Source: Asterionella formosa (Eukaryota). From it: a stretch of 33,078 bases of DNA. The notes under the pieces are model-generated. The model made no database searches, was not told the DNA's origin, and saw only the letters and a program-made list of their open reading frames with translations. The stretch lies in the NCBI GenBank assembly GCA_002256025.1, contig NKIB01000395.1, positions 1 through 33,078 on the forward strand. Direction: 5' to 3'. Within the stretch, counting starts at the first letter, position 1. Every line of letters starts with the position of its first letter. A program made the translations under genes and the position numbers. Positions 15,374 through 31,722 of the stretch are shown in pieces.

Positions 15374-15760
15374 TGTTCTTGAATGGATAGAACGTAATGA
15401 TGAATAACTAATAATGTTGTTGTTGTTGTTGTTGTTTGCTGAGAACAAGACAAATAGAAAATCGATCATGACTAACAATGGTGGACGATGCATCCAGTGT
15501 AGTATATATTAGATTTCGGTAGACGACTACCGGTACCGTATACTGGGACGAGACAAGAGGAACAAGCGGTTCGTTTGTTTGGCTTTTGACAATATCACTC
15601 TCATGCTTCATCAGTACCGGTAATTCGTTTCCTCGCGTCGCTTCCAGGCGGAGGGAGCTACCAGTACCGTATGTAGGTTACCGGTATTATAAATTAGGTA
15701 TAGTATCTGTACTGTGTACCTGGTACCTGGTACTGTGAACTACTGTATAACTGGTACCAG

Positions 15761-15780
15761 GGTACCTGGTACCAGGTACC
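15761..15780. repeat. Perfect 20-bp palindrome GGTACCTGGTACCAGGTACC within a GGTACC-rich tract
   Basis: Self-complementary, read directly; the same sequence recurs at 19567-19586. Confidence 0.8.
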
Positions 15781-16099
15781 GGTACTGGATACCCAGTACA
15801 TGTACTCTACACTCTATACACTCTTTACAGCTTATTATAGAAGAACACACATTTACATACAAATTATGTTACCGGTAGATACCGTACTGTAAGCTATAAG
15901 TATATGGAAAGGGGGTGTACATTGGTGAAAGCTCCGTTCGTTTACCAGTAGTGATATACATTTACATTTTAATAGTTAGAAGTGTGTGTTTGACTACCGG
16001 TACTCTGACTTAATATTATATTTTAAACCCTACCTCTAATCTAGGGTTGAAATGCAGGAACCTGCCTTCCATGAAATTCAATTCAATTCATTTCTGTTA

Positions 16100-18547
16100 C
16101 TAATTCTCCATAAAATCCAACCGGACCACACGGTTGGCTTCCACCATGTTTTTCAAGGCACTCATCGTTTCTGTCCAGGTCCTAGTTTTAAGACCACAAT
16201 CAGGATTGACAACCAACTGCTCTGCTGGAGTTCCGCATTTCAGGAAGCTTCGCAACTTGCGTTCCATGAATGCAACAGTTGGGACAACGGGAGAATGAAT
16301 GTCGTACAGACCAGGCCCAAGTCCCTTGCTGTAGCCAATCTTGTTAAAAGCCACCAACGTGGCATCATCACTGCGGGCGTTTTCAATGGAGTTCACGTCC
16401 GTGTCCATGCGATCAATGGCATCCATGCAATCTCCGAACTCACAATAACACATGTGAGTATGGATCTGAGTCGAACCATTGGCGCCAGCTGTGGCAAGAC
16501 GGAAGGAATCGACAGTCCAAGTCAGATACTCGGCCTTTGCGGCAGAACGGAGAGGCATGGCCTCACGAAGAGCGGGCTCGTCGACTTGAATGACAAGGCA
16601 CCCAGCTGCTTCTAAATCAGAGATCTCATCGCGAACTGCAAGAGCAATCTGCATGGCTTGGTCCTCACGGGAAATGTCAACACGTGGGAACGACCAATTC
16701 AGTATTGTCACTGGACCAGTCAACATGCCCTTGACAGGTTTGCTAGTAAGCGATTGAGCGACGATGAACTCGCGAGTTGTCATGGCACCACCACCACGAC
16801 GAGAAATGTCGCTCCAGAAGATGGGGGGACGCACGCAACGGCTTCCAAAGGATTGGACCCACCCATTCAAACTAAAGAGCATACCATCCATTTGTTGAGC
16901 AAAGAATTCAACCATGTCCGTACGTTCTGCTTCGCCATGAACCAAAATGTCAAGACCAAGCGCCTCTTGCACACCAATGGCAAAGGCTATCTGAACATCA
17001 ATGGCAGCATTGTATTCAGCAACACTCATGGCACCACTCTTGAGCTTGGTACGAAGGTTGCGGACCTCCGCGGTCTGAGGGAACGAACCAATAGTAGTCG
17101 TTGGCAGTAATGGAAGGCCTAACAATTGCTTTGGACGGCGACTTTGGTATGGTTCAGAACGACAAAAGTCAGACTGCGTCAAGGCGGCAACTCGCTGTTG
17201 TACGTGAGCATCGCTACCAACAGCAGTGCGATAGATAGTCCAAGACTTGCTGTGCTCGATCAGTTCGAAACTGCCACTCTTTACAGCCGTTGCTACTGTT
17301 GTCAACTCTTGCAACTTTTCTTTGCCAAAGGCAAGGACCTCAATAGCTGGATGAGTAGCAATGTCAGTTTCGCAACTAAGATCCCATGGAACAAATTGAA
17401 GTGACGCAGAAGGCTGAATTCGGATATTCATAGTTCCAGCAATGGAGCATAGTTCCTTGAGAAGTGGCATGGTATTGGCAGGATCCACTTTCCACACACT
17501 TCTACCATCCACAACGCCAGCTCCAAGAGTTTTCGTACGAGGAAAGCCGAATTTGCGAACAATCGCAAGGTTGTCGCCACGCGTAAAGTCAAGAGAAATG
17601 ATGGAAACTTCCTTGATCCCAACCAGAAACTTGTAGTTCGCCTCACCAACATCTTGAAAGAAAGACACCATGTTAATGGATGGAAGCGTAGTAGTCACAT
17701 CCTTGGGGAAGATGGCTGGATACACTTGCTCAAATAGTGGCAGCAAGGTGGCATCATCAAAGATGAGAGCAGGCTCATGAATTTGCACTTCAGTCACTCC
17801 CATGACGGCAAGCTCGTGAATCAAGTTACGGTAAATGGGAATGAGGTCATCAAGTAGTGCCAAACGCTGAAGTCCGATAGCCACAGTATCCTGCTTGAAC
17901 TGGACAAGTTTGGCAATGGTCACTGGACCCATAATGACAGGGACAGCACGGTCCTTGCCCAAATAGGAGAGACCACGCTTGACATTAGCGAGATAGGAAC
18001 TGAAGTTGGCATTGACCAAAGTCGTCATATCGACTTCAGGGACCATGTAGTGGTAGTTGCTGGTAAACCACTTTTTCATGCCTGTTCAATGAAATGATAA
18101 ATAAGCCAGTAGGCCATAAGTGAGCTTCAAAAGAATGCGGAACAACGAAACACAATAGTTACAAATGAGGATGCCTGATATCTGACCGCATACAAATGTT
18201 TTGTACTTACTCAAAGCTGGGGCACCATCCACTCCACGGGCCATGGCAAACATGCGGTCGGCACCAGATTTCATCGTACCAAATCTAGTTGGCACAATAC
18301 CAAGCCACTCCGTCCAAGTCAACAATCCATCGTAAAGGTATTGATCTCCGACAGTAACACGATCCACTCCAGCCTGGACTGCCAAATCCCACGCCATTGT
18401 TTCAACGTTACTGGCCACAGCAAGAAGATCCGTGAGAGTCATTTGAGCTCTCCAGTACTTTTCAAGTGCGAACTTGAGTTCTCGACGTGGGCCCATACGG
18501 GCATACCCAAGAGTGGCAGTGCTGATACTGGCGTGGTGCACTGTCAT
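16100..18547 (-). CDS. metE: Cobalamin-independent methionine synthase (~772 aa); exons 18547-18211, 18081-16100
   Basis: LGYARMGPRRELKFALE, ALS-MKKWFTSNYHY (joined across intron GTAAGT 18210...CAG 18082), PTTTIGSFPQT, HGEAERTDMVEFF, WVQSFGSRCVRPP, KGMLTGPVTILNWSF, IQVDEPALRE, Zn-ligand HMCYCEF and NPDCGLKTR. No stops or frameshifts. Confidence 0.98.
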
Positions 18548-18781
18548 GATGATGATGGTTGAAAGTTGAGAGTGAGTTGTGAGTACAGTTAGTTCTGTTC
18601 GAGTAGGAGCTCGTTCAAAATTTGTGTGTTATTAGTGTTGAAAACCAAAAACGAGGCAGGCAAAATGTCAAGGAAACAATGGAACAGCGTCGACGTCTTC
18701 TTTTACTAGTTCTATGTATAGCACTAAGTATAGCATCGTACACACAGCTATACGATGCACAGTAATTCAATTCCTGTTTTT

Positions 18782-19440
18782 GTAGAACATGATTCATTCT
18801 CGCTTCAATAACATACCGGTAGTCTACTTACTGGTATCATAGCTAATACTAATAAAAATAGGTAAAGTAGCAAACTATAGTCTGCCAGTACTATACCGGT
18901 AGAAGTGTTAATGGTGAGGCAGAGGAGGAGCAAGTCGTCCATCCACACGAAGCATGTGCATCATGATGTTTCTAATGATCTGGTCGCTAATAACAAAAGC
19001 GCTAAATATGAATACGACTATCTCCATACTATCATACTGCTGTGCGTGGTTGGGATTTACGAACTATATTCCGATAGTTAGTTATACTATAACAACCTCC
19101 TACTATATAGGAACATTTGTACTGAGAATTGTGAAACACGTGCGTGCATCATGGCTGAGGACACGAAGCATGTGCAACATTGGTATGGGTCCAGTTTGAT
19201 GAACGTGTTTCGTTGCTCGTCGGGGGAGACATGACAAAATATATTAATATAGGATCACCTGCAAAAAGTGAGACGCCAGGATGATGATGATGCAAATGAT
19301 TCCTATTTGCTATTTATGCATTTTGTCAGACATACCGGTACATTTTATGTACCAGTAGAATACCGGTACCGATAATTTGCGGGCCTACCATTTCGATCGA
19401 CGATGCTTTGTGCTGGTGATGGTTCTGAAGAACGTGATTC
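18782..19440. promoter_or_regulatory. Array of 14-nt pseudo-palindromic motifs (GAADCAYGTKCWWC) upstream of METE; candidate B12-responsive elements
   Basis: Strong copies: 18782-18795 (rc GAATCATGTTCTAC), 18949-18962 GAAGCATGTGCATC, 19165-19178 GAAGCATGTGCAAC, 19198-19211 (rc GAAACACGTTCATC), 19427-19440 (rc GAATCACGTTCTTC). Weaker: 19133-19146, 19289-19302. Function inferred. Confidence 0.7.
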
Positions 19441-19565
19441 ATTACCGGTAACTAATCTACCGGTGTTAGTCACCAATAGTGTGTACCAGGTACCGTCTGT
19501 CATGCTTCAAGAATCACAATCGTTTCGTCAGCAGGAAATACCGGTACCTGGTAGCTCTTCCAGGG

Positions 19566-19587
19566 TGGTACCTGGTACCAGGTACCA
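19566..19587. repeat. Perfect 22-bp palindrome TGGTACCTGGTACCAGGTACCA
   Basis: Self-complementary, read directly. Confidence 0.8.
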
Positions 19588-19842
19588 GTACTACCTAATA
19601 GGAGTACCAGTACGGTGTATGTATTATTATGCAGTTATGATGCGATAGTTAGCAGGAGTACTAAATCTCATGGTATTCCGTACTGCATAATTCATGCGTA
19701 CATACTACCGGTATATGCACACCTGTTTACTCCCACTGCATCGCTCAGCCGGGTATTTAATGAACACGACGACGGAACAAACATTCCAACGTCTTCCTCT
19801 ATCATTGTGATATCTGTTTCTTCATTGTTATCCTGACTAATA

Positions 19843-21672
19843 ATGACCATGACGATGAAGAAGACGATGACAAAGAACATGTTGTTGGTTGTAATACTGC
19901 TGATGAATAAGAAGAGAGGAGTGGCCTTTACATTTTCTCCTCCCCTGATACTTCTACATGATCCATCGCACCATTATCGATTCCTACAACAACAAAATGG
20001 CTATAACTACAACAATTACTACAAAAATGAATACAACAACATTTTACAGGCCACTTCGTCTCGAGAATTACAAGAACGGAATCCAAATAAAATCCGTTTG
20101 GCTCGTGCTGTTGCTAGAATTAAAAAGCAACAACCACCACCACCAATTCCATCAGAATCAGCAGCAACAACAACAACAACATCTTCATTGAGAGTATTGA
20201 ATCAAGTCATTCTGGAAACAACATTGGAAAATAAAAAAAGATTTTTAACAGACAATAGTAAAATTGTACAAACCCAAGATAGTATGACCATGTTGTTGGG
20301 ATATCATCATCATCATCATCATTACAACAACAGCAACATACAACAAGTGATTGTGGTTTTCGGGAAAACATTGGGAGGTACAATAGAAGGACTTGTATCA
20401 GTGGAATATGCAAGTCGGATTCAGCAATTGGTTCAACTCCTTAATGAACAACAACTCTACTATGATTCAGCGTTGATATGTTTTTGTGCTCCAGATGAAG
20501 GCGAGGGAATAATTGGAGTACCGTTTCGCGGAATAACAAATAATGTACCATCCTTGGTACGAATTCAGAAATTATCTTCATCATCACCTACTACAACAAC
20601 GAAATCTTCTACATCATCACCTACTGCTGCTACTACAAGAAATCGAGGATCTACTATGGTGGATTCTGGATTTACCTATTTTCAACATTTGATGAAATCA
20701 CAAGGATTGGAAACATTATTATCCAACAACTCAATAAGGAGGGAATACTTTTTAGATAATGATGGGAATGACAATAGTGATATTGATGATGATACTGGTA
20801 TTGATGGACATCAAAATCATGCCTTGAGCAACATTGTGACACTTATTAAAAAGGAATTTTTGACAAAATGGTTGGCATCATCAGCTGTAGTGACTGCATC
20901 GTCAGATGCACAGCAACAACAACAATCTGTCAATAAGCCGCAAAAACGACTTCATATACACTTTACATTGATAAGTACAGATTATCATTTATGCAATTTA
21001 AATGACATTCATCGGCGATCACCGAATCAATCATTATTACGACCATTGGAACAATTGGAAGAGGAATATTATGATGATCATCATTCCATTGAAACATCAT
21101 GGAGTTTTAGATATGCAACTTATCCCTTCAAACAAACAAAATTGGATACTACGGCATTTTTGGGAAAATGTTTTGTATTGAATGAACAATTGTTACCATT
21201 GTTATTGAATCTACGGGGTGTCGTAAACGAAAAAGAATTCTTCCAACGAGAGAATTATATGGTTCTAGCAACAGTTCGGCGAGGGTTGGTGTCCTATATG
21301 GAAGACTTGTACAAGTCATCCCTTGTGCAGCTACGATCATCATTGCGCCAATGCAGCACAAATAATTCTGCAGATATAGCAATCGATGTCATCTTAGAAG
21401 GAGCAATCTTAAGCTTGGGTCGGTGCATGGATGTCGTCCGACCTGCAGGTCTGCATGTTGGCACTGTCAGTAAAGAAGATTATTACAAGGCCTTGAAATC
21501 ATTGGAACATTGCATGGGACAAATTCGAACCTATTGTGATCCGGATCAACCCTTGCCGCTCAATGAGTGGGGAAAGTTGGACTGTGATTGTTTAGATGGG
21601 GCCTTGATGATGTTGAACAATAGTGACGAGGAGATTACGGAAGACAATTATGTGGCTGCCTTGGAAAAATGA
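19843..21672 (+). CDS. Hypothetical protein (~609 aa) with a DUF218/YdcF-like Rossmannoid region and possible N-terminal targeting peptide
   Basis: Long intronless ORF. Motif order VIVVFGK...EYASRI..LV.LL...ICFC...FTLISTDYHL resembles DUF218 (IVVLG...R...IFSGG...LVTS.YH), interrupted by low-complexity inserts, followed by a helical C-terminal region. Domain call is by eye; exact start Met uncertain. Confidence 0.7.
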   Translation: MTMTMKKTMTKNMLLVVILLMNKKRGVAFTFSPPLILLHDPSHHYRFLQQQNGYNYNNYYKNEYNNILQATSSRELQERNPNKIRLARAVARIKKQQPPPPIPSESAATTTTTSSLRVLNQVILETTLENKKRFLTDNSKIVQTQDSMTMLLGYHHHHHHYNNSNIQQVIVVFGKTLGGTIEGLVSVEYASRIQQLVQLLNEQQLYYDSALICFCAPDEGEGIIGVPFRGITNNVPSLVRIQKLSSSSPTTTTKSSTSSPTAATTRNRGSTMVDSGFTYFQHLMKSQGLETLLSNNSIRREYFLDNDGNDNSDIDDDTGIDGHQNHALSNIVTLIKKEFLTKWLASSAVVTASSDAQQQQQSVNKPQKRLHIHFTLISTDYHLCNLNDIHRRSPNQSLLRPLEQLEEEYYDDHHSIETSWSFRYATYPFKQTKLDTTAFLGKCFVLNEQLLPLLLNLRGVVNEKEFFQRENYMVLATVRRGLVSYMEDLYKSSLVQLRSSLRQCSTNNSADIAIDVILEGAILSLGRCMDVVRPAGLHVGTVSKEDYYKALKSLEHCMGQIRTYCDPDQPLPLNEWGKLDCDCLDGALMMLNNSDEEITEDNYVAALEK

Positions 21673-22142: not shown

Positions 22143-25100
22143 TCAATCAAAAGCAAGTACATCAGAATCATTTGACATTGGATCTTCTTCCACGACAGTA
22201 ATCATTCCATCGTCAGAACCAACAAAAAGAAACTGAGGAATGGGGTTCAAATCATCTGGTGTCAAGGCGATGCAGCGAATCGGACCATGTCTGGAGATAT
22301 CTAGTACAGAAAGAACCTCCAAGTTACGACATGCTCGAAAAACCAGTTGACAATGATCGCCTCCAGTAATGAGTATTTCACCATTGCTAGTCACTTTCAT
22401 ATCCTGCAACTTTTCACCAGCGTCCACAGAACAGAGATGGACTCCATTCACAGTCATGGCGTGCAACCAACAGTCTTCCATGTGAGCGATAAGCGTCCCA
22501 GAGCTATCGAGAACCAATTTCCTAACGGCATTTGGTCTATCGCCATCGTAATTGGGAGTTCTAATGGATCTCACGAATTTACCACGCCGAACTCTATGCA
22601 CACAGAGATTTCCTTCTAGAGACCCACTCACGACAACATCCAGGTCCGAAGATATGGCAATGCATGTCACAGGAGCAACATGGCCCCAGAGAACGTGGCA
22701 ACACGCTAGGATTCGTTCCCCGTCAGTATTTTTGCCCAGCGCTGTTTTAACGTATCCACCGGAAAGCGCTACTGCCATGTCTGGATGATCGACAACCCAA
22801 ACACGGCAAGTTGTATCTTGTCCACCCGTGACCATGAGGGCGCCATCGTCACCCAAAGCCAAACAACGGATAGGACCACGATGTCCACCATTGTCGCTGC
22901 ATTGTAGCCTTAGTCCATCCACAGAGTGAACCTTGATACAGTCGTCCCAATAGCCACAACTGACGAGGAGAGAGTTAACTTCAGCTGCTGATAGCACATC
23001 CTTGGCAGAACTTGTCAATCTTGAGGACTGCATTTGTGTCTTCCTTCGAAGGATTTCTTTCGCTTCCCCACCTAGTGTTAAGCAAATGGACCAATTGCCA
23101 ATTGAATGGCAAGAGTTAGAATCCTCCATACTTTGAGGCGCAGCAGAGCCTCTAATGATGGCGCTCCGAGATGTCGAAAGTTCTCGCCCCCCAATAACCT
23201 TGTGCTTGTCCATACGAATCATAAAAGGGTGCTTAGCGTTTCGTGATGGTCCCCACTTGTACGTTCCAACGCTCATGTCACTGTAAACTGCAAATACCGT
23301 ATCGCTCATAACTTGGATGCTAACTACGGCGCCTTTGGTTTGTCCGTTCTTACTTCCGCCAAATTGTTTCCTCGGGGTGTGACATCGTAAATGCCTTGGG
23401 ACCGCTTCGCTGTGAATCAAAAAATTCCAACGATCGCTTCGAGGATATCGAGGAGAATGTGCTTCCTTGATTAGGAGCTGAGATGGAGTTTGTCCAAAGT
23501 TTTGAATATGACTTTCTGAAAAGGAATAGGTGAGGTGAGTTGGATTTTAACAGATCTTAAAAATATTCGGATTGCAACATACCCGTAGCTGCTCGGTCGA
23601 TGTCATCAGTTATTTTATCGAGATCAACAGCACCTTCGTACGACAAGTAGTGGAACAAATTGTGTGCGGCTTCTGCTTCTGGTCCTCGTTGCTTACAACC
23701 GAAAATGAGATCAATCCAATGGTGAAGATTTTGTGAAACGTATTCAGACTCCAAAGCCAATCTATGAATTCTTACAAACTCGTAGGCAGAGCCGTTAGCC
23801 CAAGGTGGTAGTTTAACATTGTCGATGCTATGTGTTTCTTGGGTACGCCCCAATGGGTAGTTGTTGGTGTTCAAGAAAACTTCAGGACAAGTGAAGAGTT
23901 CAGGAACAAGTTCCTTTACATCTGATGTTGACGTGTTACAACTACGCCAACAACTTGCAATATCGAAGAACAATCGATCGGGACAATCGAACCGACCCGA
24001 TTGCAATTCGATTGCCATTGTTGTAAACGGTTCTTGACGAATCAAATAATGCAAGACTACACCGGGCGAGGAATAGTGACTACCATATAGGAAGCGCTCA
24101 TTTTCAGCAAACCCAAAGCTTTCCAACTCATTAAAGCGTTCGATTAACGCAGAAAGTCGATTCTCGTTTAGCGCACCAACGGGTTTCGAAAGGTCGCGGT
24201 AAACTCGAGTATCTTGAAGGTCGATGGTATCGCTTGTGAAGTCCGACAAGATCCATGGGAAAACTGGGTACTGAGTAATATCATTGAATGTGCGACCGGC
24301 CATTTTGTTGAGCTGCATTAGGTAACAAAAGTTCGAAATTTTGCCCATTCTCCAGAGCTGCGTTAAATTGGATTTCTTAAAGACGACTCTTGGATTTAGT
24401 GACTTCGGCGACCATAACATTGGTACTTTGCAACTATTGCGGAGCTTCGCGAAAAATCGATCTCTATCTTTTAGTCCATTAGTGAAATTGATGAACAGCT
24501 CATGACTATCAGAGAAGAAAAGTTCAATGGCTTGCGCTCGCAACATGAACCTGCGGCCATGTACTTCCGTCAGACGATTGAGTCGCCATCGAGTGTCTCG
24601 CTTTTCGAACTTTTCATTGTCGATCTTGGACCCGGATTCTTTTGTCACCACATTTGTTATGCTTCCGGATTGCCTGAAGTAGAGCCCGTGTGTTGTAAGC
24701 AGTAGATTTCCTTCGGTGATAGTTTGCAGAGTTACAATCATTACTCCATCAAATCGAGCAACAATTGACTCAGAGTCGGACCAAATGAATACCTTTGCCC
24801 AAGCATCAGAATCAACGATCTGAGCATCTTCATCTTCGACCATAACAACATCGCCGTCCACACCGAAGACGGACTCCGTGTTCGTCACTACCTTCAACTC
24901 CAAACCGTCGAGGAATGACGTTGTTTTCCGTTGAACAGAATCATTGTGTGCGAGCAAGAACACACTATCCTCAGTCTCGTTGTCATTTTCATCGTCCTCG
25001 CCATCCTCTCCGTTTCCATGAATGGCGTCATCAAATTCTCCAAAGCGAACCATTGCTCCGCTATTTCTTCTCACGACGTCTAAAACATCAGACATGTCCT

Positions 25101-28100
25101 CTTCCTGTTTCTTTCGAAGCCGTTCTTCCCTTAACTTCATTGCTTTGTCTCGCTCTATCCCTAGCATTAATTCATAAGATGCTTGCTGATGATCATCGAA
25201 GTCACGATTTCTCGTGAGGAGAATTCGGCGATTCAGCCTGTCAGCATGTCGAGCAAGCTGCCAGTGACTCGACTCGCAATTCCAAAGCTCAACAACAATA
25301 CGTTCGACAGCATACCAACGACTGGATGCGCTATTGGCTCGTTCGATAATCATTCTGCCAATTTCAGCTGATTCCATCTGGTGTTTGCTAGACAACTTCT
25401 TTGAAGTCGAATCTCCTTCGAATTCCAGTTCTCGTACAGCGCCGGTGTTGGCCCATTTACGCTGATCCTCACAGTACTTGTCGAACGAAGTATCAAGCAC
25501 TCGGTTAAAGTCCTGGACTATGTCACTAGACTCCAGTGCCATTTCCTCTATTGCAAGAACACCTCGATGTGACGATGTCCTGTGTTCAAGCACCTGCCCA
25601 TTTGCCACTTGCTCTGGAATAGCTAGAGTGTCATGCATGTCAACGTCGTGGAAACTCTTGACCCATGTACATGACAAGAACGTGCGGACCGTTGCCTCCT
25701 TGGAAACGGGAGGCCCAACATTTCTTGGGTATCTAGAACCATTACCGGATAAGGACTGTTCAAGACCGGATTGTAGCGCTTCGAATGCTTCATGGGATAG
25801 CGCTGCGCGAAGCACTTCGTTGCGACCTCGGTAAGCGGCAAGAAGAATCTCTCGGAGTTCAAATGAAACGCGAAGCAAACGGCGATAGTTCTTCTTCTTT
25901 GAGTCGTCGTTAGGGAAATAAATGTTTTTCGGTGATGATTCAATTTCCGTCAAGATTGTTGCACACTTTGCGAGGGATCTGTGACACTGAAGAACAGTTG
26001 CTAGGACAAGACGATCCAACGGAGCTGTGAGATCATGAAAAGCGGCCGAATATCCAGCCAGTCCAACTGATTCACGAATCAGTTCGAGTGACCAATGTAC
26101 AAAACACCTCAATCGACTGCAACATTGAAGAAATTTTACACTGCTTGGTTCTAAATGACACATAAGAGTCAATGAGAGTCTCATTAGAGAGGCAATTAGT
26201 GGCCCCTGTGACTTTCCAAGTCTGGCTTCGTTAGATCGCACAAGAGCAAGTCCGTGAAGCTGTGATGCTGGCAAAGATGCGTCCAGCGAATCAGGAAATA
26301 TGAAAGCGTCCAATAGCGTGAGTATTTGAGCAGCGACAGCCAATGAAACTCGTCGAGAACGTGCATGGCAATCAGCAGAGTAAGGCACATTCTGGATCAA
26401 TTTAACATATTCGGTAGAGTTTATGCCTGGAACGTTGTATTCTGGCAATCTGATACCGTATACACCCATTGAAAAGTTGTCGATCGCAGAACCAGACTGA
26501 GAGGAATAGTCGAATAACTCTCCCATTGTAAAACCACTTTTGGTCACGATAGCTGATGACGTAGCCGCAAGATGACGGAGAGATTGCCACTGTCTCACGG
26601 CGGAAGCTGCATCAACTAGGTTTGATCCATTAGCTAGTATTGCATTCGTAACAATCCTTGCACTTTCCCTTAGCAACTTATTTCGTTCCATTGTCTCTCT
26701 ATTAGGCGAAGTAACCGAAATCGCCTCGACAGTGCCATAATCCATAAGGTTTGCAAGGAGATGGTTCATGATCAAGCACACTACTTCCTGGCCATTGGCG
26801 CATACTCTTTCCAGTGATGCAGTATATTCAATACAGTGCAAAGCCTTCTCTCCTCCATGTCGGAAACAGTAACCCAGCAAGCAGGAATAGAGCTTGAGCG
26901 AAAGGTCAAATCTAGTTTCAACATGTGCCCTTTCTACAGATGAATGACACTCACTGGGGCTCCCTGTCTCGCTTGGAAAATCAATAGCATTGGTGCTAAC
27001 AGCGAGACGATTTGTTTCGCTGGTGGAAGCGATATCCTCAACGGAATCAGATATCAAATGGAATAGGGATGGTTGCCATTCTGAACATGCAACCAATACT
27101 GCAAGATTCCCAGGGCAGGTAGAAATGAGGTCCAACAAATCCAACAACCACTTTTCTTTCCATTCGTCAGACAAAAAACGAATTAGGCGAAGGACAATAT
27201 TTAACGCTGGCCCTTGTCTCAGTTTCTTCCCAGAAACAGATTCGCATTCAAGCAAAATAGTTTCTACGGCATTTATGCTGAGAGCATAGCCCACTCGAAG
27301 GACTTCGTCGCTGATGACACATTCTTGAACAAGGAAGCTTGGACTATAAATAACCCCTCTATCTTGAAGAAGCAAGTTGACCAATGATGAATGTGTTTTC
27401 GGGCCAATGCGGATCTTGTGACTCTTTAACAGGTGCCAGAGCAATTTGAAACAAACGCTCTTGTCGTCTGTCCCTGGCTGAATTATACTGGAAAGTAAAG
27501 GAGCTCCCCCGATTGAAGCAAGACCTTTTCCCATATTTGTAATAGTAATTGTCAATCGCTTGCCAACAGGCCTTGCACCGGTTTCTATAGTGGTTTGGCC
27601 TTGAGAGCCAATAAAATCTTTGGACTTTTGATCAATGCCCTGATTGCAAGCATGTTCGGCATCCATGTACTCGGCTAAGCATCGAATCCCCAGTGAACGC
27701 AATTCGTCATCGCACGAGTTAATGATGGCACAGACGATCCAGCTAGAAGTGGCATGTGGCCCACCGCAAATTTTTGTAAGGCTCGGAAGGATACCAGGAG
27801 CTGTAGGTCGACCTTTCAGCAAGAATAAAAGTACAGAAGTGGCCTTAACTGCAGCGAGGTGCATTTCTTGTCTTTCACCTTTCCGTATAAGTGGATCTTT
27901 CCCATTGACAACATCCTGTACAGCAAGATCATGCTCATGATCAACGCTATGTGCGATATAATTGATCAGCGGGCTGAGAAGTGTTGGATTTGTCCCAATA
28001 GCTAGGATATTGGCCACAATTCCGAGGATAATATCTACTGCATGCCTTCGTTCCATGATTGTTAATGGAGCTCGTGGGTCAAGACCGGACATAGAGCTGC

Positions 28101-31100
28101 GATCAAAGAGCTGTGTCCCTGCTTCATGGGAAATGTGCTTCAGGTGTTCCTTGTCAATCTGTATGTATAGCTTGAGTGCTTCTATCAAAGTCTTGGTTCC
28201 GACGCAGTCCCGAACTTTCATTGGGCTTGACTTTGCCACAGATGACAGAAGGGGTAGTAGCGTAACATGGTGACCAACACCATGTGACTCATCAAACCAT
28301 AATGGCATATTGAAGTAAAGGCGGGTGAAGACCGTGGTCTCTAGCACTTCATATTGGGAACATGATGCTCGCAGGTCGACTAGAGCGTCAAGAAGCCTGC
28401 TTGATAGTTTATAATGGAGTGCAAGTACTCCAAGCATTGTTTCACAGGGATTTGTACCGGAGTTTGATGAGCAACTTTGTTGAGTCTTGTTCAAGAGAAG
28501 AAAGTTTTCGATGATATCAATTCCACCACATCTGATAATTTCCCTTGCATTTTCAGCATTATCTTTGATAAATGCCGACAAAAGTGCAATTAAGTTTGGT
28601 ATCAAAGGATATGCGGTTTTGGGGTCAAAGTCATTTGAATCAGCTGATTGCATCATGTGCCATTCTCGCTCAACCTTGCCAGACAATAACGACTCAAACA
28701 CTGGCAACAATGCTTGTACTCCACCTAAACTCCCGATAACCTTTTGTGCCCCTTCTACAAACCAAGGCAGCACTTTATCTGTGTCCATAATTACATGTGC
28801 ACCGGAGTGAAGATCTAATGCCACGGATCCTTCTGTTCGCTTTGGGTCCCATACTAAAAAGATCCTGGCTGAGAGCGAGGCCTTACTCAATTCAATTGGA
28901 AAATCGCTTGACCCTTCTTCTTCCCCGAGATCTACTACTAAGGCGTTGGTGGGATTTAGAATCTCTTGCTTTCGGTCTCGACAACTACTTGTCATTGCAA
29001 TCTCTTCTGCATCAACGGTAGCGATTTCAACCACGCTAGCTAGTTTTCGCGTATTATCCCCTCGAACCGAGTTCCACTGATGATTGTCTTTCATCTGATC
29101 ATGCTTTGCTATGCCTCTGGTCCCAGCTGTAACTTCGTGAAGTGCGCGAAGGGTGGCATCAGAAATATTGTCATTGAATAAATACAAGGCTCCAGTTTGA
29201 CCTTCAAAATCAGCTCCAAATTGAACTGTCAAAGTTGTTGTGTTTGCAGATCTTCGTAGACCCAATAGATTCGATGGTGAAGGTACTTCTGCATCTGAGT
29301 ATGTAATGGATGGAAATTTTAATGGTTCTGTCAACAGCACTTTGCCATCTAGCATGATGGTTAAATTTTGACGTGCCCCCAAGGAAAAGACACCCTTGAG
29401 CCTTGACTGCGTATGCCTAATGGCAAGATGATACCATACTCGAGGCAGGATAAGACAGCAATTGAGCTTCACTTGCTGTACTCCATGATGACCATGATGG
29501 CTGACATTCGAGTCATATGTAGTTACAGTAATGACAGAGGCCTTGGAGTCGCCGTCCACCTGCTGAAGCGCCACTTCAATGCCACCCCCATCCGGTGCTC
29601 TGCAACTCAGCAATCTGGCATTATCCTTGCCATCAAAAGCTTCAACACGAAACCAGCATGCCATGCCAAAGTCATTCCGAAAGGGCCACGATGGAAGTGA
29701 TTTCATTGTCCTAGTTAGACCTGGACCCTTTCGAAAACTAAAGAAATAGCGGGGACTCGCCTTACATAACAATTGTGAGGACTTCGAGGCGCCTTCAGCT
29801 GCTGTAGCTAATGCACGAATGAGCAAGAGTCGGTCAAATGCACACCGTCGCAAGGGCGACCCTTCTGATGGTATCGTATCACCTGACATAGCGAGCATGC
29901 GTCGAAGCTCCTTGACAGCTATTCCAGCCGTACACAATAGTCCTAGTAGTCTTGAGACTGGTCCCAGCAAGTGATGTGAAGGTTCCTGATCCAAAATCGA
30001 CTCAAAAAGATTTAATATGCATGATACAGCATGGTTGTTGCCGTGATCACTCCCAATGCAACGATTCCAAACTTCCCCGGTTCGAAATCGCACAATAGCG
30101 TACACTTGATACGGACGCTGCGAGAAAAATTGTTGATGTAATTGACCCTTTGCTTCAAAAGTCATCGAATGGTGTTTCCTTTGTTGATCAAGGGTTTCTC
30201 TGGTTTTTCGCATGCGTTGAATTCGTTCATGGGTTCTGACTTGGAAGGATGATGTTGAATTTTCATCTAAAATTGATCCCAAAGTACTCCCCAGATGTTG
30301 TCGCTTTTGCATCCAAGTTTCGTTTGTATGATCTGATGTAGTTGAGTCGGTTTCATCATCCTGGTCCCAACTCTCACTCGTCAACAAGCATGCATCGTCG
30401 TATTCATCATCTGTTTCATTAGTCAAGAGTCGTATTAGAATTCGAAAGAAAGCCAATTGAAAGTACTTTGGTAATTTCAGTAAATGATCTTGAGATTGCA
30501 ACAATGACACAATTGATTTCTTTTGTGCTGCCGATGCTGAAATCAATGCATCGCAGGGCAACGGAATGTTGCTGTTGTCGCCATTGTTGGTTCGCTTCTT
30601 CATTCTCGGCCGCTTATGTCTCCCGCGTTCTTTCTCATTCAAGATTATTTGTTGAATCGAAGCTATTGTTGGTGATGGATGGGCCAATGGTCCAAAGAGT
30701 GCAAACAAAAGTAGAGCATCCGTATCTGGCAAAGTTCGGCCAATATGATAGGAAAAGCTGAGTGGTTCCAATGCTTTTCCCTCTTGACTATGAATAATAG
30801 CAGTGACCAATGCTGCTTCTGAATGCAACCAGTGCGTAGAAAGCTGCTCGATGGACAACGGCACACCCCCACAATCCCGCAAAAGATCTGGTATTGTACT
30901 AGAAGACATTAGCAGGACTGTGGATTTTGATTTTGATTGGCCATGCTCCGTGTTGGGAGATGCCGTTATTTTTGTAGTTGCCGATAATGGCACCGACGCC
31001 TGAATGGCATCATTTCGTTCTTGTTCTTCATCATAGCTATCATATCGAGTTATCGGATTTGAGGCCAAAAATGATCGCTTTCTCCTTGAATGATCTAAAA

Positions 31101-31440
31101 CCGTGACAGTTTCCATATCCTCCACGAGTGCTTCAATGGAGGCTGCTTCCATGTAGCGAGCCAATTGATAGGAACGGCTAAATTTACTATCTTCTTCTTC
31201 CTCGTCTGCTTCCAGGTGCTCTTCGTCAAACAAAATACTGTCGGACCGCTCATGCGGCATAAGAATATGCGCCCGTCCTCCAATGGCCCTTCCAGAACGA
31301 TCCAAATCATCAGGTTTCAGTTCCATGCTTGTAGATCGATGGTACGATGTCATAGTCATTGCATCATCATCGCCAGGTACCGATTCCAATTCCAACGAGG
31401 AATCCATGGTGTTTCTTTTGTCCGGTGTCAATGATGCCAT
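22143..31440 (-). CDS. BEACH domain-containing protein, neurobeachin/LRBA-like (ConA-like, PH, BEACH, WD40; ~3076 aa); exons 31440-23583, 23515-22143
   Basis: PH-BEACH: RRFMLRAQAIELFF, ISNFCYLMQLNKMAGRTFNDITQYPVFPWI, YGSHYSSPG, SDVKELVPELF, LHHWIDLIFG. A 67-nt intron GTATGT(23582)...CAG(23516) restores ATE-SHIQNFGQTPSQLL and fuses the WD40 ORF (SCGYWD, GHRGPIRC, LWGHVAPVTC). First ATG at 31440. Confidence 0.95.
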
Positions 31441-31722
31441 GTGTCGCGGCGTTTCGTAGAAAACAGAATCGCAGATGAACAAGATCAGATCAGATTCGCC
31501 TTCTACCAAACAAAAGGCAAAAAGGAAGTACTTTTGCAATCCTTTCTTGTATTATTCAAAGCAATATAGATGAGCAAAACAAGAGATAGTGGCTGAAAGG
31601 AATGTAGCAGTAAGTGTAATGATATTATGTAACACCGAGAAGAATTCCAGCACCATGGTGATGAAAAGCAATGTTGAGGACCATCGCATATTAAATATAG
31701 GTAAACATACATAAATAAATAC

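Follow-up and report, generated by a model that had tools for sequence, protein, structure and literature searches.

The contig NKIB01000395.1 of Asterionella formosa, of which we analyzed one stretch of 33,078 bases (hereafter the window, numbered from its first letter), carries a gene for the cobalamin-independent methionine synthase METE, and an array of short repeats with dyad symmetry lies in the intergenic spacer upstream of it. We identify this array as a further instance of a diatom control element already described, the 14-nt motif GAAKYACGTKCWKC. The layout of the cluster, taken together with experiments on the element in Phaeodactylum tricornutum, points to a set of sites for a dimeric activator of the induced level of METE, and we regard it as likely that the array, as a cluster of the same element, sets the "on" level of the gene; its designation as a B12-responsive operator in an initial annotation of this DNA is not supported. 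For a diatom, the ability to grow without vitamin B12 from bacteria hinges on METE expression, and METE transcripts serve to indicate B12 limitation in the field. Support for the motif had come from experiments in one species and from a statistically weak motif search, and the dense arrays that we report at METE in four more lineages, whose promoters cannot be aligned, are independent evidence for a real and old element.

The motif was discovered in a MEME analysis (E-value, 670) of six THIC promoters from diatoms, after which it was located upstream of PtMETE, FkMETE, PtCBA1, PtSHMT1, and Tp42612 (Hickland et al. 2025, Plant J, PMC12538271; consensus GAAGCACGTGCTTC). That paper places it upstream of 11 B12-down-regulated genes and reports it as absent from eight P. 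tricornutum genes that B12 does not affect and from Tp22483, one of six B12-regulated test genes. The PtMETE promoter has four copies, at −133, −262, −395, and −485, and this is the multicopy 14-nt motif of Phaeodactylum to which the initial annotation had correctly pointed. PtMETE promoters with four, two, and one copies gave 100%, ~25%, and ~10% expression, respectively, with complete B12 repression in all of them, and a 242-bp truncation with one copy was still fully repressed. Scrambling both copies of a 359-bp PtMETE promoter left no detectable expression and no derepression, and one copy placed before the FCPA promoter gave an ~2.3-fold gain in expression with no B12-dependent change. 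The loss of expression upon scrambling, the lack of a B12 response of the added copy, and the persisting repression of the truncated promoter all speak against reading the motif as a B12-responsive operator. The authors accordingly described the motif as an enhancer that is necessary for expression but not sufficient for B12 regulation and placed the B12-responsive part at most 242 bp from the ATG. Repression of PtMETE (97%) and PtTHIC by B12 is also described in an earlier report, the consulted passages of which do not mention the motif (Llavero-Pasquina et al. 2022). Full-text literature searches with both motif strings retrieved PMC12538271 only, and literature searches for a factor binding the motif found none.

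The gene downstream of the array proved to be METE, as had been proposed, with two in-frame open reading frames (ORFs; 18086-18547 and 16100-18079 on the minus strand) matching the Pfam families Meth_synt_1 and Meth_synt_2. The repeats had been summarized in the initial annotation by the pattern GAADCAYGTKCWWC, and all five copies assigned to it are exact matches, on both strands (Table 1), with none in the rest of the 33,078 bases. Two weaker copies are also present, one at 19133 (GAAACACGTGC...) and the other at 19289, reading GAATCATTTGC on the reverse strand. We further recovered the exact 16-mer common to positions 18945-18960 and 19161-19176 and the inverted pair in which ACGTGTTTC (19203-19211) is the reverse complement of GAAACACGT (19133-19141). 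The sites, which occur in either orientation, are spread over ~650 bp between −234 and −879 relative to the METE ATG, and three of them (19133, 19165, and 19198) are spaced by 32 and 33 bp. Likeness between the copies stops within 20 to 24 nt: the second and fourth are alike over 20 nt at 95% (family D6), and the first and seventh are alike over 24 nt at 83% (family D5).

The five exact matches to GAADCAYGTKCWWC compare with 0.06 expected and were reached in none of 100 shuffles of the window, but this test is circular, as the pattern was derived from these very copies, and we therefore repeated it with a consensus defined elsewhere, namely, the published GAAKYACGTKCWKC, allowing up to two mismatches. 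On this independent test, the window has 14 strand matches versus 4.02 expected (reached in 0/100 shuffles), eight of which correspond to six distinct sites, all within 18782-19440. For the 1295-bp spacer, six distinct sites stand against a dinucleotide-shuffle mean of 0.118, and none of 1,000 shuffles reached six; one site matches GAAKYACGTKCWKC without a mismatch, two have one mismatch, and three have two. The remainder of the window's non-ORF DNA (10,819 bases) has three such sites. A 16-nt pattern, YGAANCAYGTNNWTCR, with at most one mismatch gave five sites in the window versus 0.80 expected, all of them in the array. A less favorable result came from the 11-nt core with one mismatch, which is not enriched across the window (12 matches versus 7.82 expected, with 12 reached in 13 of 100 shuffles).

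The array resembles that of PtMETE in its consensus, in the gene that it precedes, in being multicopy, in lying less than 1 kb from the ATG, and in using both orientations. The best copy (19427-19440) differs by one base each from the PtMETE3 and FkMETE instances as given in Table S4 of PMC12538271, and the CACGTT core of PtMETE1 to PtMETE3 and FkMETE is also the predominant core in our collection. The differences lie in the copy number (six sites, or seven with the one at 19133, versus four), in the distance to the ATG (−234 to −879 versus −133 to −485), and in the core, where, unlike the published consensus, four of the seven window copies have a T for the C of ACGT (three CATGT and one CATTT).

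When metagenome contigs were scanned with exon 1 of METE, four further loci (L001 to L004) were identified that are 59 to 65% identical to the query in this exon and 55 to 71% identical to each other, except for L003 and L004, at 83%. Under the two-mismatch threshold, the 207 bp upstream of METE in L001 have two sites (shuffle mean, 0.019; reached in 0/1,000), the 805 bp in L002 have three (0.163; 1/1,000), and the 492-bp intergenic region in L003 has six (0.047; 0/1,000), while L004, with 39 bp upstream of the ATG, has none. Arrays are thus found in all three loci for which the upstream DNA reaches 200 bp or more, and the other 10.6 kb of the four loci are devoid of sites at this threshold. 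The pattern GAADCAYGTKCWWC itself has exact matches outside the sample from which it was derived, one in L002 and two in L003. No alignment between the upstream regions of the window and L001 to L003 exceeds 21 nt; the top-scoring segment pairs between the window and L003 and between L002 and L003 (17 to 21 nt) fall on motif sites, the best matches of the three pairs involving L001 are only 9 to 11 nt, and the top 11-nt matches between the window and L001 and between the window and L002 lie off the motif. The gene divergent from METE in L003 is Beclin/APG6-like and unrelated to the divergent neighbor in the window (P0001); as the neighbor differs between lineages, the array travels with METE. 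A multicopy motif array is thus a conserved attribute of METE promoters across distant lineages. Relative to PMC12538271, which gave one copy per gene outside PtMETE, the arrays at METE in three more lineages are new. Positions 1161-1352 of L003 consist of 2.2 copies of an 85-bp tandem unit with 91% matches that holds a pair of sites 32 to 33 bp apart; local duplication is therefore one way in which arrays are enlarged.

Together, the window and L001 to L003 provide 17 sites, whose cores read CACGTT in nine cases, CATGTT in three, CATGTG in two, and CACGTG, CATTTG, and CACAGG in one each. The natural core is therefore CAYGTK, mostly CACGTT, rather than the perfect CACGTG that was published, and the Y in GAADCAYGTKCWWC is real, in that CATGT variants recur in L003. 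The positions flanking the 14 columns, which were not selected by the search, have a pyrimidine at −1 in 16 of the 17 sites and a purine at +15 in as many; for the 14 published instances, the flanks in Table S4, judged by eye, have a pyrimidine at −1 in 10 and a purine at +15 in 12. This is the bias that a dyad predicts, and we infer that the site extends to a 16-bp dyad, YGAAnCAYGTKnWTCR. Given the dyad, a dimeric factor, as suggested earlier for these repeats, is a reasonable reading. With respect to its class, the ACGT core expected for basic leucine zipper (bZIP) proteins is present in three of the seven window copies (19133, 19198, and 19427) and in 10 of the 17 sites, the window copies lacking it being three with CATGT and one with CATTT. 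The E-box (CANNTG) expected for basic helix-loop-helix (bHLH) proteins is present in four of the seven (CATGTG twice, CATTTG, and CACGTG) and in four of the 17, failing in the window at CACGTT (twice) and CATGTT. Hence, the core variants fit neither the strict bZIP nor the strict bHLH rule. A heat shock factor was considered in view of the GAA...TTC flanks and rejected, as their spacing of 8 nt misfits the canonical heat shock element, in which it is 2 nt. The orientation of the sites relative to METE is mixed at every locus, and pairs 31 to 33 bp apart recur, namely, in the window trio, twice in L003, and as a single weak pair in L002; these few independent cases hint at binding to the same helical face.

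On the strength of the above, we propose that the array comprises six or seven predicted sites for one dimeric transcriptional activator, the same cis element as GAAKYACGTKCWKC, which would jointly set a high "on" level of METE transcription, with every copy adding to the output. The layout is enhancer-like, with many sites, mixed orientation, and variable spacing, all of them upstream of the METE-side RNA contig ends (18723-18784), which only weakly indicate the 5' end. Repression by B12 would then be read at least partly elsewhere, be it at a proximal element, in the 5' untranslated region (UTR), or via an activator cofactor, and no operator-type repressor would occupy the sites. By analogy, the function seen in P. 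tricornutum (required, copy dependent, and enhancing) presumably also holds in A. formosa. Several observations weigh against this proposal. The functional experiments all come from P. tricornutum, another species, and the published motif itself carries the E-value noted above and includes several weak instances among those listed in PMC12538271. The near-invariance of GAA, CA, GT, and the final TC in the 17 sites is read from a 14-column logo that is biased, its columns having been selected via the search consensus. ACGT cores in three of seven copies are a poor fit to the bZIP proposal made for the factor. The 85-bp duplication in L003 is recent, and the six sites there are therefore not six independent events. 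Finally, in a de novo k-mer search of the four upstream regions, GAAGCA was the top 6-mer common to all, yet its 12 occurrences lie within the null (mean, 8.14; maximum, 15); the motif fragments GAAGCA, GAAGCAC, CACGTTC, and CGAAGCA are among the top k-mers with counts within those of simple shuffles, and the top 7-mer is the unrelated CTGGTAC.

A refinement of the operator idea that overlaps with our proposal is that the array is a B12-responsive upstream activating sequence, whose activator is switched off or removed from the sites by B12 (or by methionine or S-adenosylmethionine status), with a regulon of METE, CBA1, SHMT, and THIC. We consider it the less probable of the two but entertain it tentatively: the motif was found at the 11 B12-down-regulated genes and at none of the eight unaffected ones, the still-repressed 242-bp truncation of PtMETE keeps one copy, and the scrambled promoter gives no expression from which B12 dependence could be judged (PMC12538271). 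Moreover, METE, to which the arrays are linked in four further lineages, is the gene that B12 represses most strongly, and no cluster is seen at the other genes in the window. On the other hand, a B12-dependent activator at the FCPA fusion should have lost its ~2.3-fold gain upon B12 addition, which it did not, and the statistics linking motif and regulon are weak, given the MEME E-value of 670 and the degenerate ToTHIC and PtSHMT1 instances (PMC12538271).

Control by B12 could alternatively reside in a riboswitch-like RNA element in the 5' UTR or the intron of METE, leaving a general role to the DNA motif. Such an arrangement would accommodate the mapping of the P. tricornutum response to the last 242 bp, 5' UTR included (PMC12538271), and the retention of the METE intron, with its in-frame stop, in RNA contigs of three runs. 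We consider it unlikely because no Rfam family, the cobalamin riboswitch included, matches 17900-19900 at E-values of up to 1, sub-threshold miRNA-like matches aside, and because the putative 5' UTR and the intron fold no better than their shuffles (z-scores of −0.57 and +0.29, respectively).

That the sites are operators of a B12-dependent repressor, which is the literal wording of the initial annotation, is highly improbable: the proximal copy (18782-18795) does abut or overlap the end of the longest METE-side RNA contig at 18784, itself a weak hint, but scrambling abolished and an added copy raised expression in P. tricornutum (PMC12538271), and most copies lie 400 to 880 nt upstream in both orientations, unlike an operator layout. 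Least credible of all are chance matches or functionless repeat or mobile-element debris, for which one could cite the seven spacer copies of another repeat, TACCGGTA, the 20- to 24-nt likeness of some motif copies, and the tandem duplication in L003, since the spacer shuffles never reach the observed count, the likeness of the copies ends within 24 nt, the arrays recur at METE in unalignable promoters of distant lineages, and TACCGGTA is absent from all four metagenome loci and is therefore unrelated to the motif.

The known mechanism closest in logic to the proposed activator cluster is, by analogy, that of the yeast MET upstream activating sequences, where the bHLH-zipper protein Cbf1 bound to TCACGTG recruits Met4 with Met28, including at MET6, the METE orthologue. 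There, activation requires the site, but the site alone does not confer regulation by the metabolite, whose signal is received by the activator complex and not by a repressor; at the diatom array, B12 or methyl-cycle status would take the place of that signal. The resemblance, a CACGTG-type dyad upstream of methionine synthesis genes, is an analogy of mechanism only: in contrast to yeast TCACGTG, the flanks here are GAA...TTC and the cores are mostly CACGTT or CATGTK, and none of the seven window copies has an exact TCACGTG (the one at 19427 reads TCACGTT). Plant and algal G-box/ACGT elements are similar in their palindromic hexamer core, flank-set specificity, and frequent multicopy occurrence, but only one of the 17 sites has CACGTG, and the other cores depart from it in different ways, CACGTT being an ACGT without an E-box, CATGTG an E-box without ACGT, and CATGTT neither. 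In bacteria, a cobalamin riboswitch upstream of metE, an RNA element, allows B12 to turn off the B12-independent synthase; the physiological logic is the same, but the array described here is DNA upstream of the RNA contig ends. An analogy with sulfur-repressible activators and G-box/ACGT binding by bZIP or bHLH proteins had already been proposed in the discussion of PMC12538271, which also cites the METE promoter of Chlamydomonas reinhardtii, a green alga, as carrying the B12 response (Helliwell et al. 2014).

The array alone does not reveal the mechanism of B12 sensing. Its natural variants (the CAYGTK core, the 16-bp dyad, and the 32- to 33-bp pairs) nevertheless narrow the search for the factor and improve the patterns with which diatom genomes can be scanned, and one of the four lineages occurs in freshwater metagenomes. 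A more speculative generalization, to which we give limited credence, is that YGAAnCAYGTKnWTCR is a pan-diatom cis code of the B12/methyl-cycle response, read by a dimeric activator whose acceptance of CACGTT, CATGTG, and CATGTT places it outside the canonical bZIP and bHLH rules, with copy number and the ~32- to 33-bp pairs (three helical turns) setting the induction strength of each gene of the regulon upon B12 depletion. If so, the arrays of the window and L001 to L003 would be a natural variant series with which to fish out the factor, and responses to B12 limitation would become predictable from genome sequence in both marine and freshwater diatoms.

Table 1. Features of the METE locus in the window and of the leader 6-mer in related loci
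Feature	Position	Strand	Relative to METE ATG	Remarks
METE, cobalamin-independent methionine synthase	16100..18547	-		Pfam Meth_synt_1 and Meth_synt_2; translation; RNA contig cover
METE exon 1	18211-18547	-		ATG at 18547
METE intron	18082-18210	-		129 nt; GT..AG; in-frame TGA at 18086-18088
METE exon 2	16100-18081	-		
Divergent spacer	18548..19842	.		1295 bp, METE ATG (18547, -) to neighbor ATG (19843, +); contains whole array
TCACAA, window	18582-18587	-	35 nt before ATG	
Copy 1, GAATCATGTTCTAC	18782..18795	-	-234 (its end)	Most proximal; CATGTT core; exact to GAADCAYGTKCWWC; 2 mismatches to published consensus
Copy 2, GAAGCATGTGCATC	18949..18962	+	-401	CATGTG core; exact to GAADCAYGTKCWWC; 1 mismatch to published consensus
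Weaker copy, GAAACACGTGCGTG	19133..19146	+		Perfect CACGTG core, poor right flank; 11-nt core exact; 3 mismatches to published 14-mer
Copy 4, GAAGCATGTGCAAC	19165..19178	+	-617	Exact to GAADCAYGTKCWWC; matches published consensus (<=2 mismatches)
Copy 5, GAAACACGTTCATC	19198..19211	-	-650	CACGTT core; exact to GAADCAYGTKCWWC; 1 mismatch to published consensus
Weaker copy, GAATCATTTGCATC	19289..19302	-	-741	1 core mismatch; 2 mismatches to published consensus
Copy 7, GAATCACGTTCTTC	19427..19440	-	-879	Best copy; exact to GAADCAYGTKCWWC; 0 mismatches to published consensus
Divergent neighbor gene P0001	19843..21672	+		609 aa; ORF; RNA contigs start at 19748, 19750, and 19849
TCACAA, L001	154-159			
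TCACAA, L002	727-732			
TCACAA, L003	1542-1547			

The transcript evidence for the locus consists of RNA contigs, which can show neither absence nor transcript ends, and two of the sources (X14 and X17) belong to one study. On the METE side, contigs end at 18723, 18756, 18757, and 18784, the last being an X9 contig that ends inside copy 1. In the X9, X14, and X17 contigs, most of the spacer is uncovered, and between the two genes there are only partial, repeat-bearing matches at ~19432-19655. A metatranscriptome contig from X18 (359 nt; depth, 4.8) matches 18918-19272, inside the array, with 13 differences and four gaps, in a part to which the other three runs contribute no contig; either an upstream transcript from a related strain or carried-over DNA might account for it. 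Contigs from three studies bridge the METE intron without a gap (X9, 17314-18784; X14, 16028-18368; X18, 17701-18307), and no spliced METE joint is listed among the RNA contigs. The bridged intron may represent retention that gives a truncated product, or else unspliced RNA or DNA carry-over. Its position is seemingly common to L001 and L002, and L003 and L004 lack it. Closer to the gene, a TCACAA (as CTCACAA or TCACAATT) precedes the METE ATG by 35 to 80 nt in all four upstream regions. An initiator-like or leader function is conceivable, but six nucleotides in leaders rich in A and C are too little for an assignment.

The repeat TACCGGTA is an 8-nt palindrome that occurs 27 times in the window versus 0.18 expected (e.g., at 1091, 11951, 15528-15995, 18814, 18894, 19333, 19361, 19443, 19539, and 19706). 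All but three of its occurrences lie outside long ORFs, those three being in an ORF without a family match, and one of the seven in the METE spacer adjoins the copy at 19427-19440. GGTACC-type relatives at 15716-15787 and 19565-19590 draw partial matches from many high-depth RNA contigs, which identifies these units as a dispersed short repeat. We conclude that TACCGGTA is a separate, lineage-specific intergenic feature. Positions 19525-19603 form an imperfect GGTACC-type inverted repeat (I2), with 21-nt arms that are 86% complementary and 22 nt apart, and it is this repeat that yields the sub-threshold miRNA-like Rfam matches (24 bits versus a gathering score of 100).

The named relatives of the METE protein are mostly from diatoms, at 58 to 65% identity (Epithemia, Mayamaea, Cylindrotheca, Phaeodactylum, Nitzschia, and Fistulifera), with the ochrophyte Chrysoparadoxa at 66%; the exon 2 ORF (659 aa) shares 58% identity with METE of P. 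tricornutum. Metagenome runs labeled freshwater, lake water, or algal contain the window stretch and, together with the named relatives of METE and of the neighbor protein, point to a freshwater diatom as the most likely source. The divergent neighbor P0001 encodes a protein abundant in Asn, His, and Thr runs, for which family searches gave neither a Pfam family nor an Atlas hit. It belongs to a protein family of unknown function and has 52 relatives, all named ones being from diatoms (best, Fragilaria crotonensis, at 40%), and PF02698 is present in one distant relative. P0001 was considered as a B12 gene and set aside, as no link to B12 was seen in its Pfam and Atlas searches, in its relatives, which are unnamed diatom proteins, or in L003, where the neighbor is unrelated. 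The remaining genes in the window, none of which has a motif cluster, code for a P5C reductase, an RPN13-like protein, a scramblase, a GNAT protein, and a large BEACH domain (neurobeachin-like) protein (22143-31539, minus strand). The last combines an ORF with DUF4704, PH_BEACH, and Beach domains (23557-31539) with a WD40 propeller in 22143-23420; the interval between them, 23421-23556, is probably an intron, and a lone motif-like match (23452-23465) falls within it.

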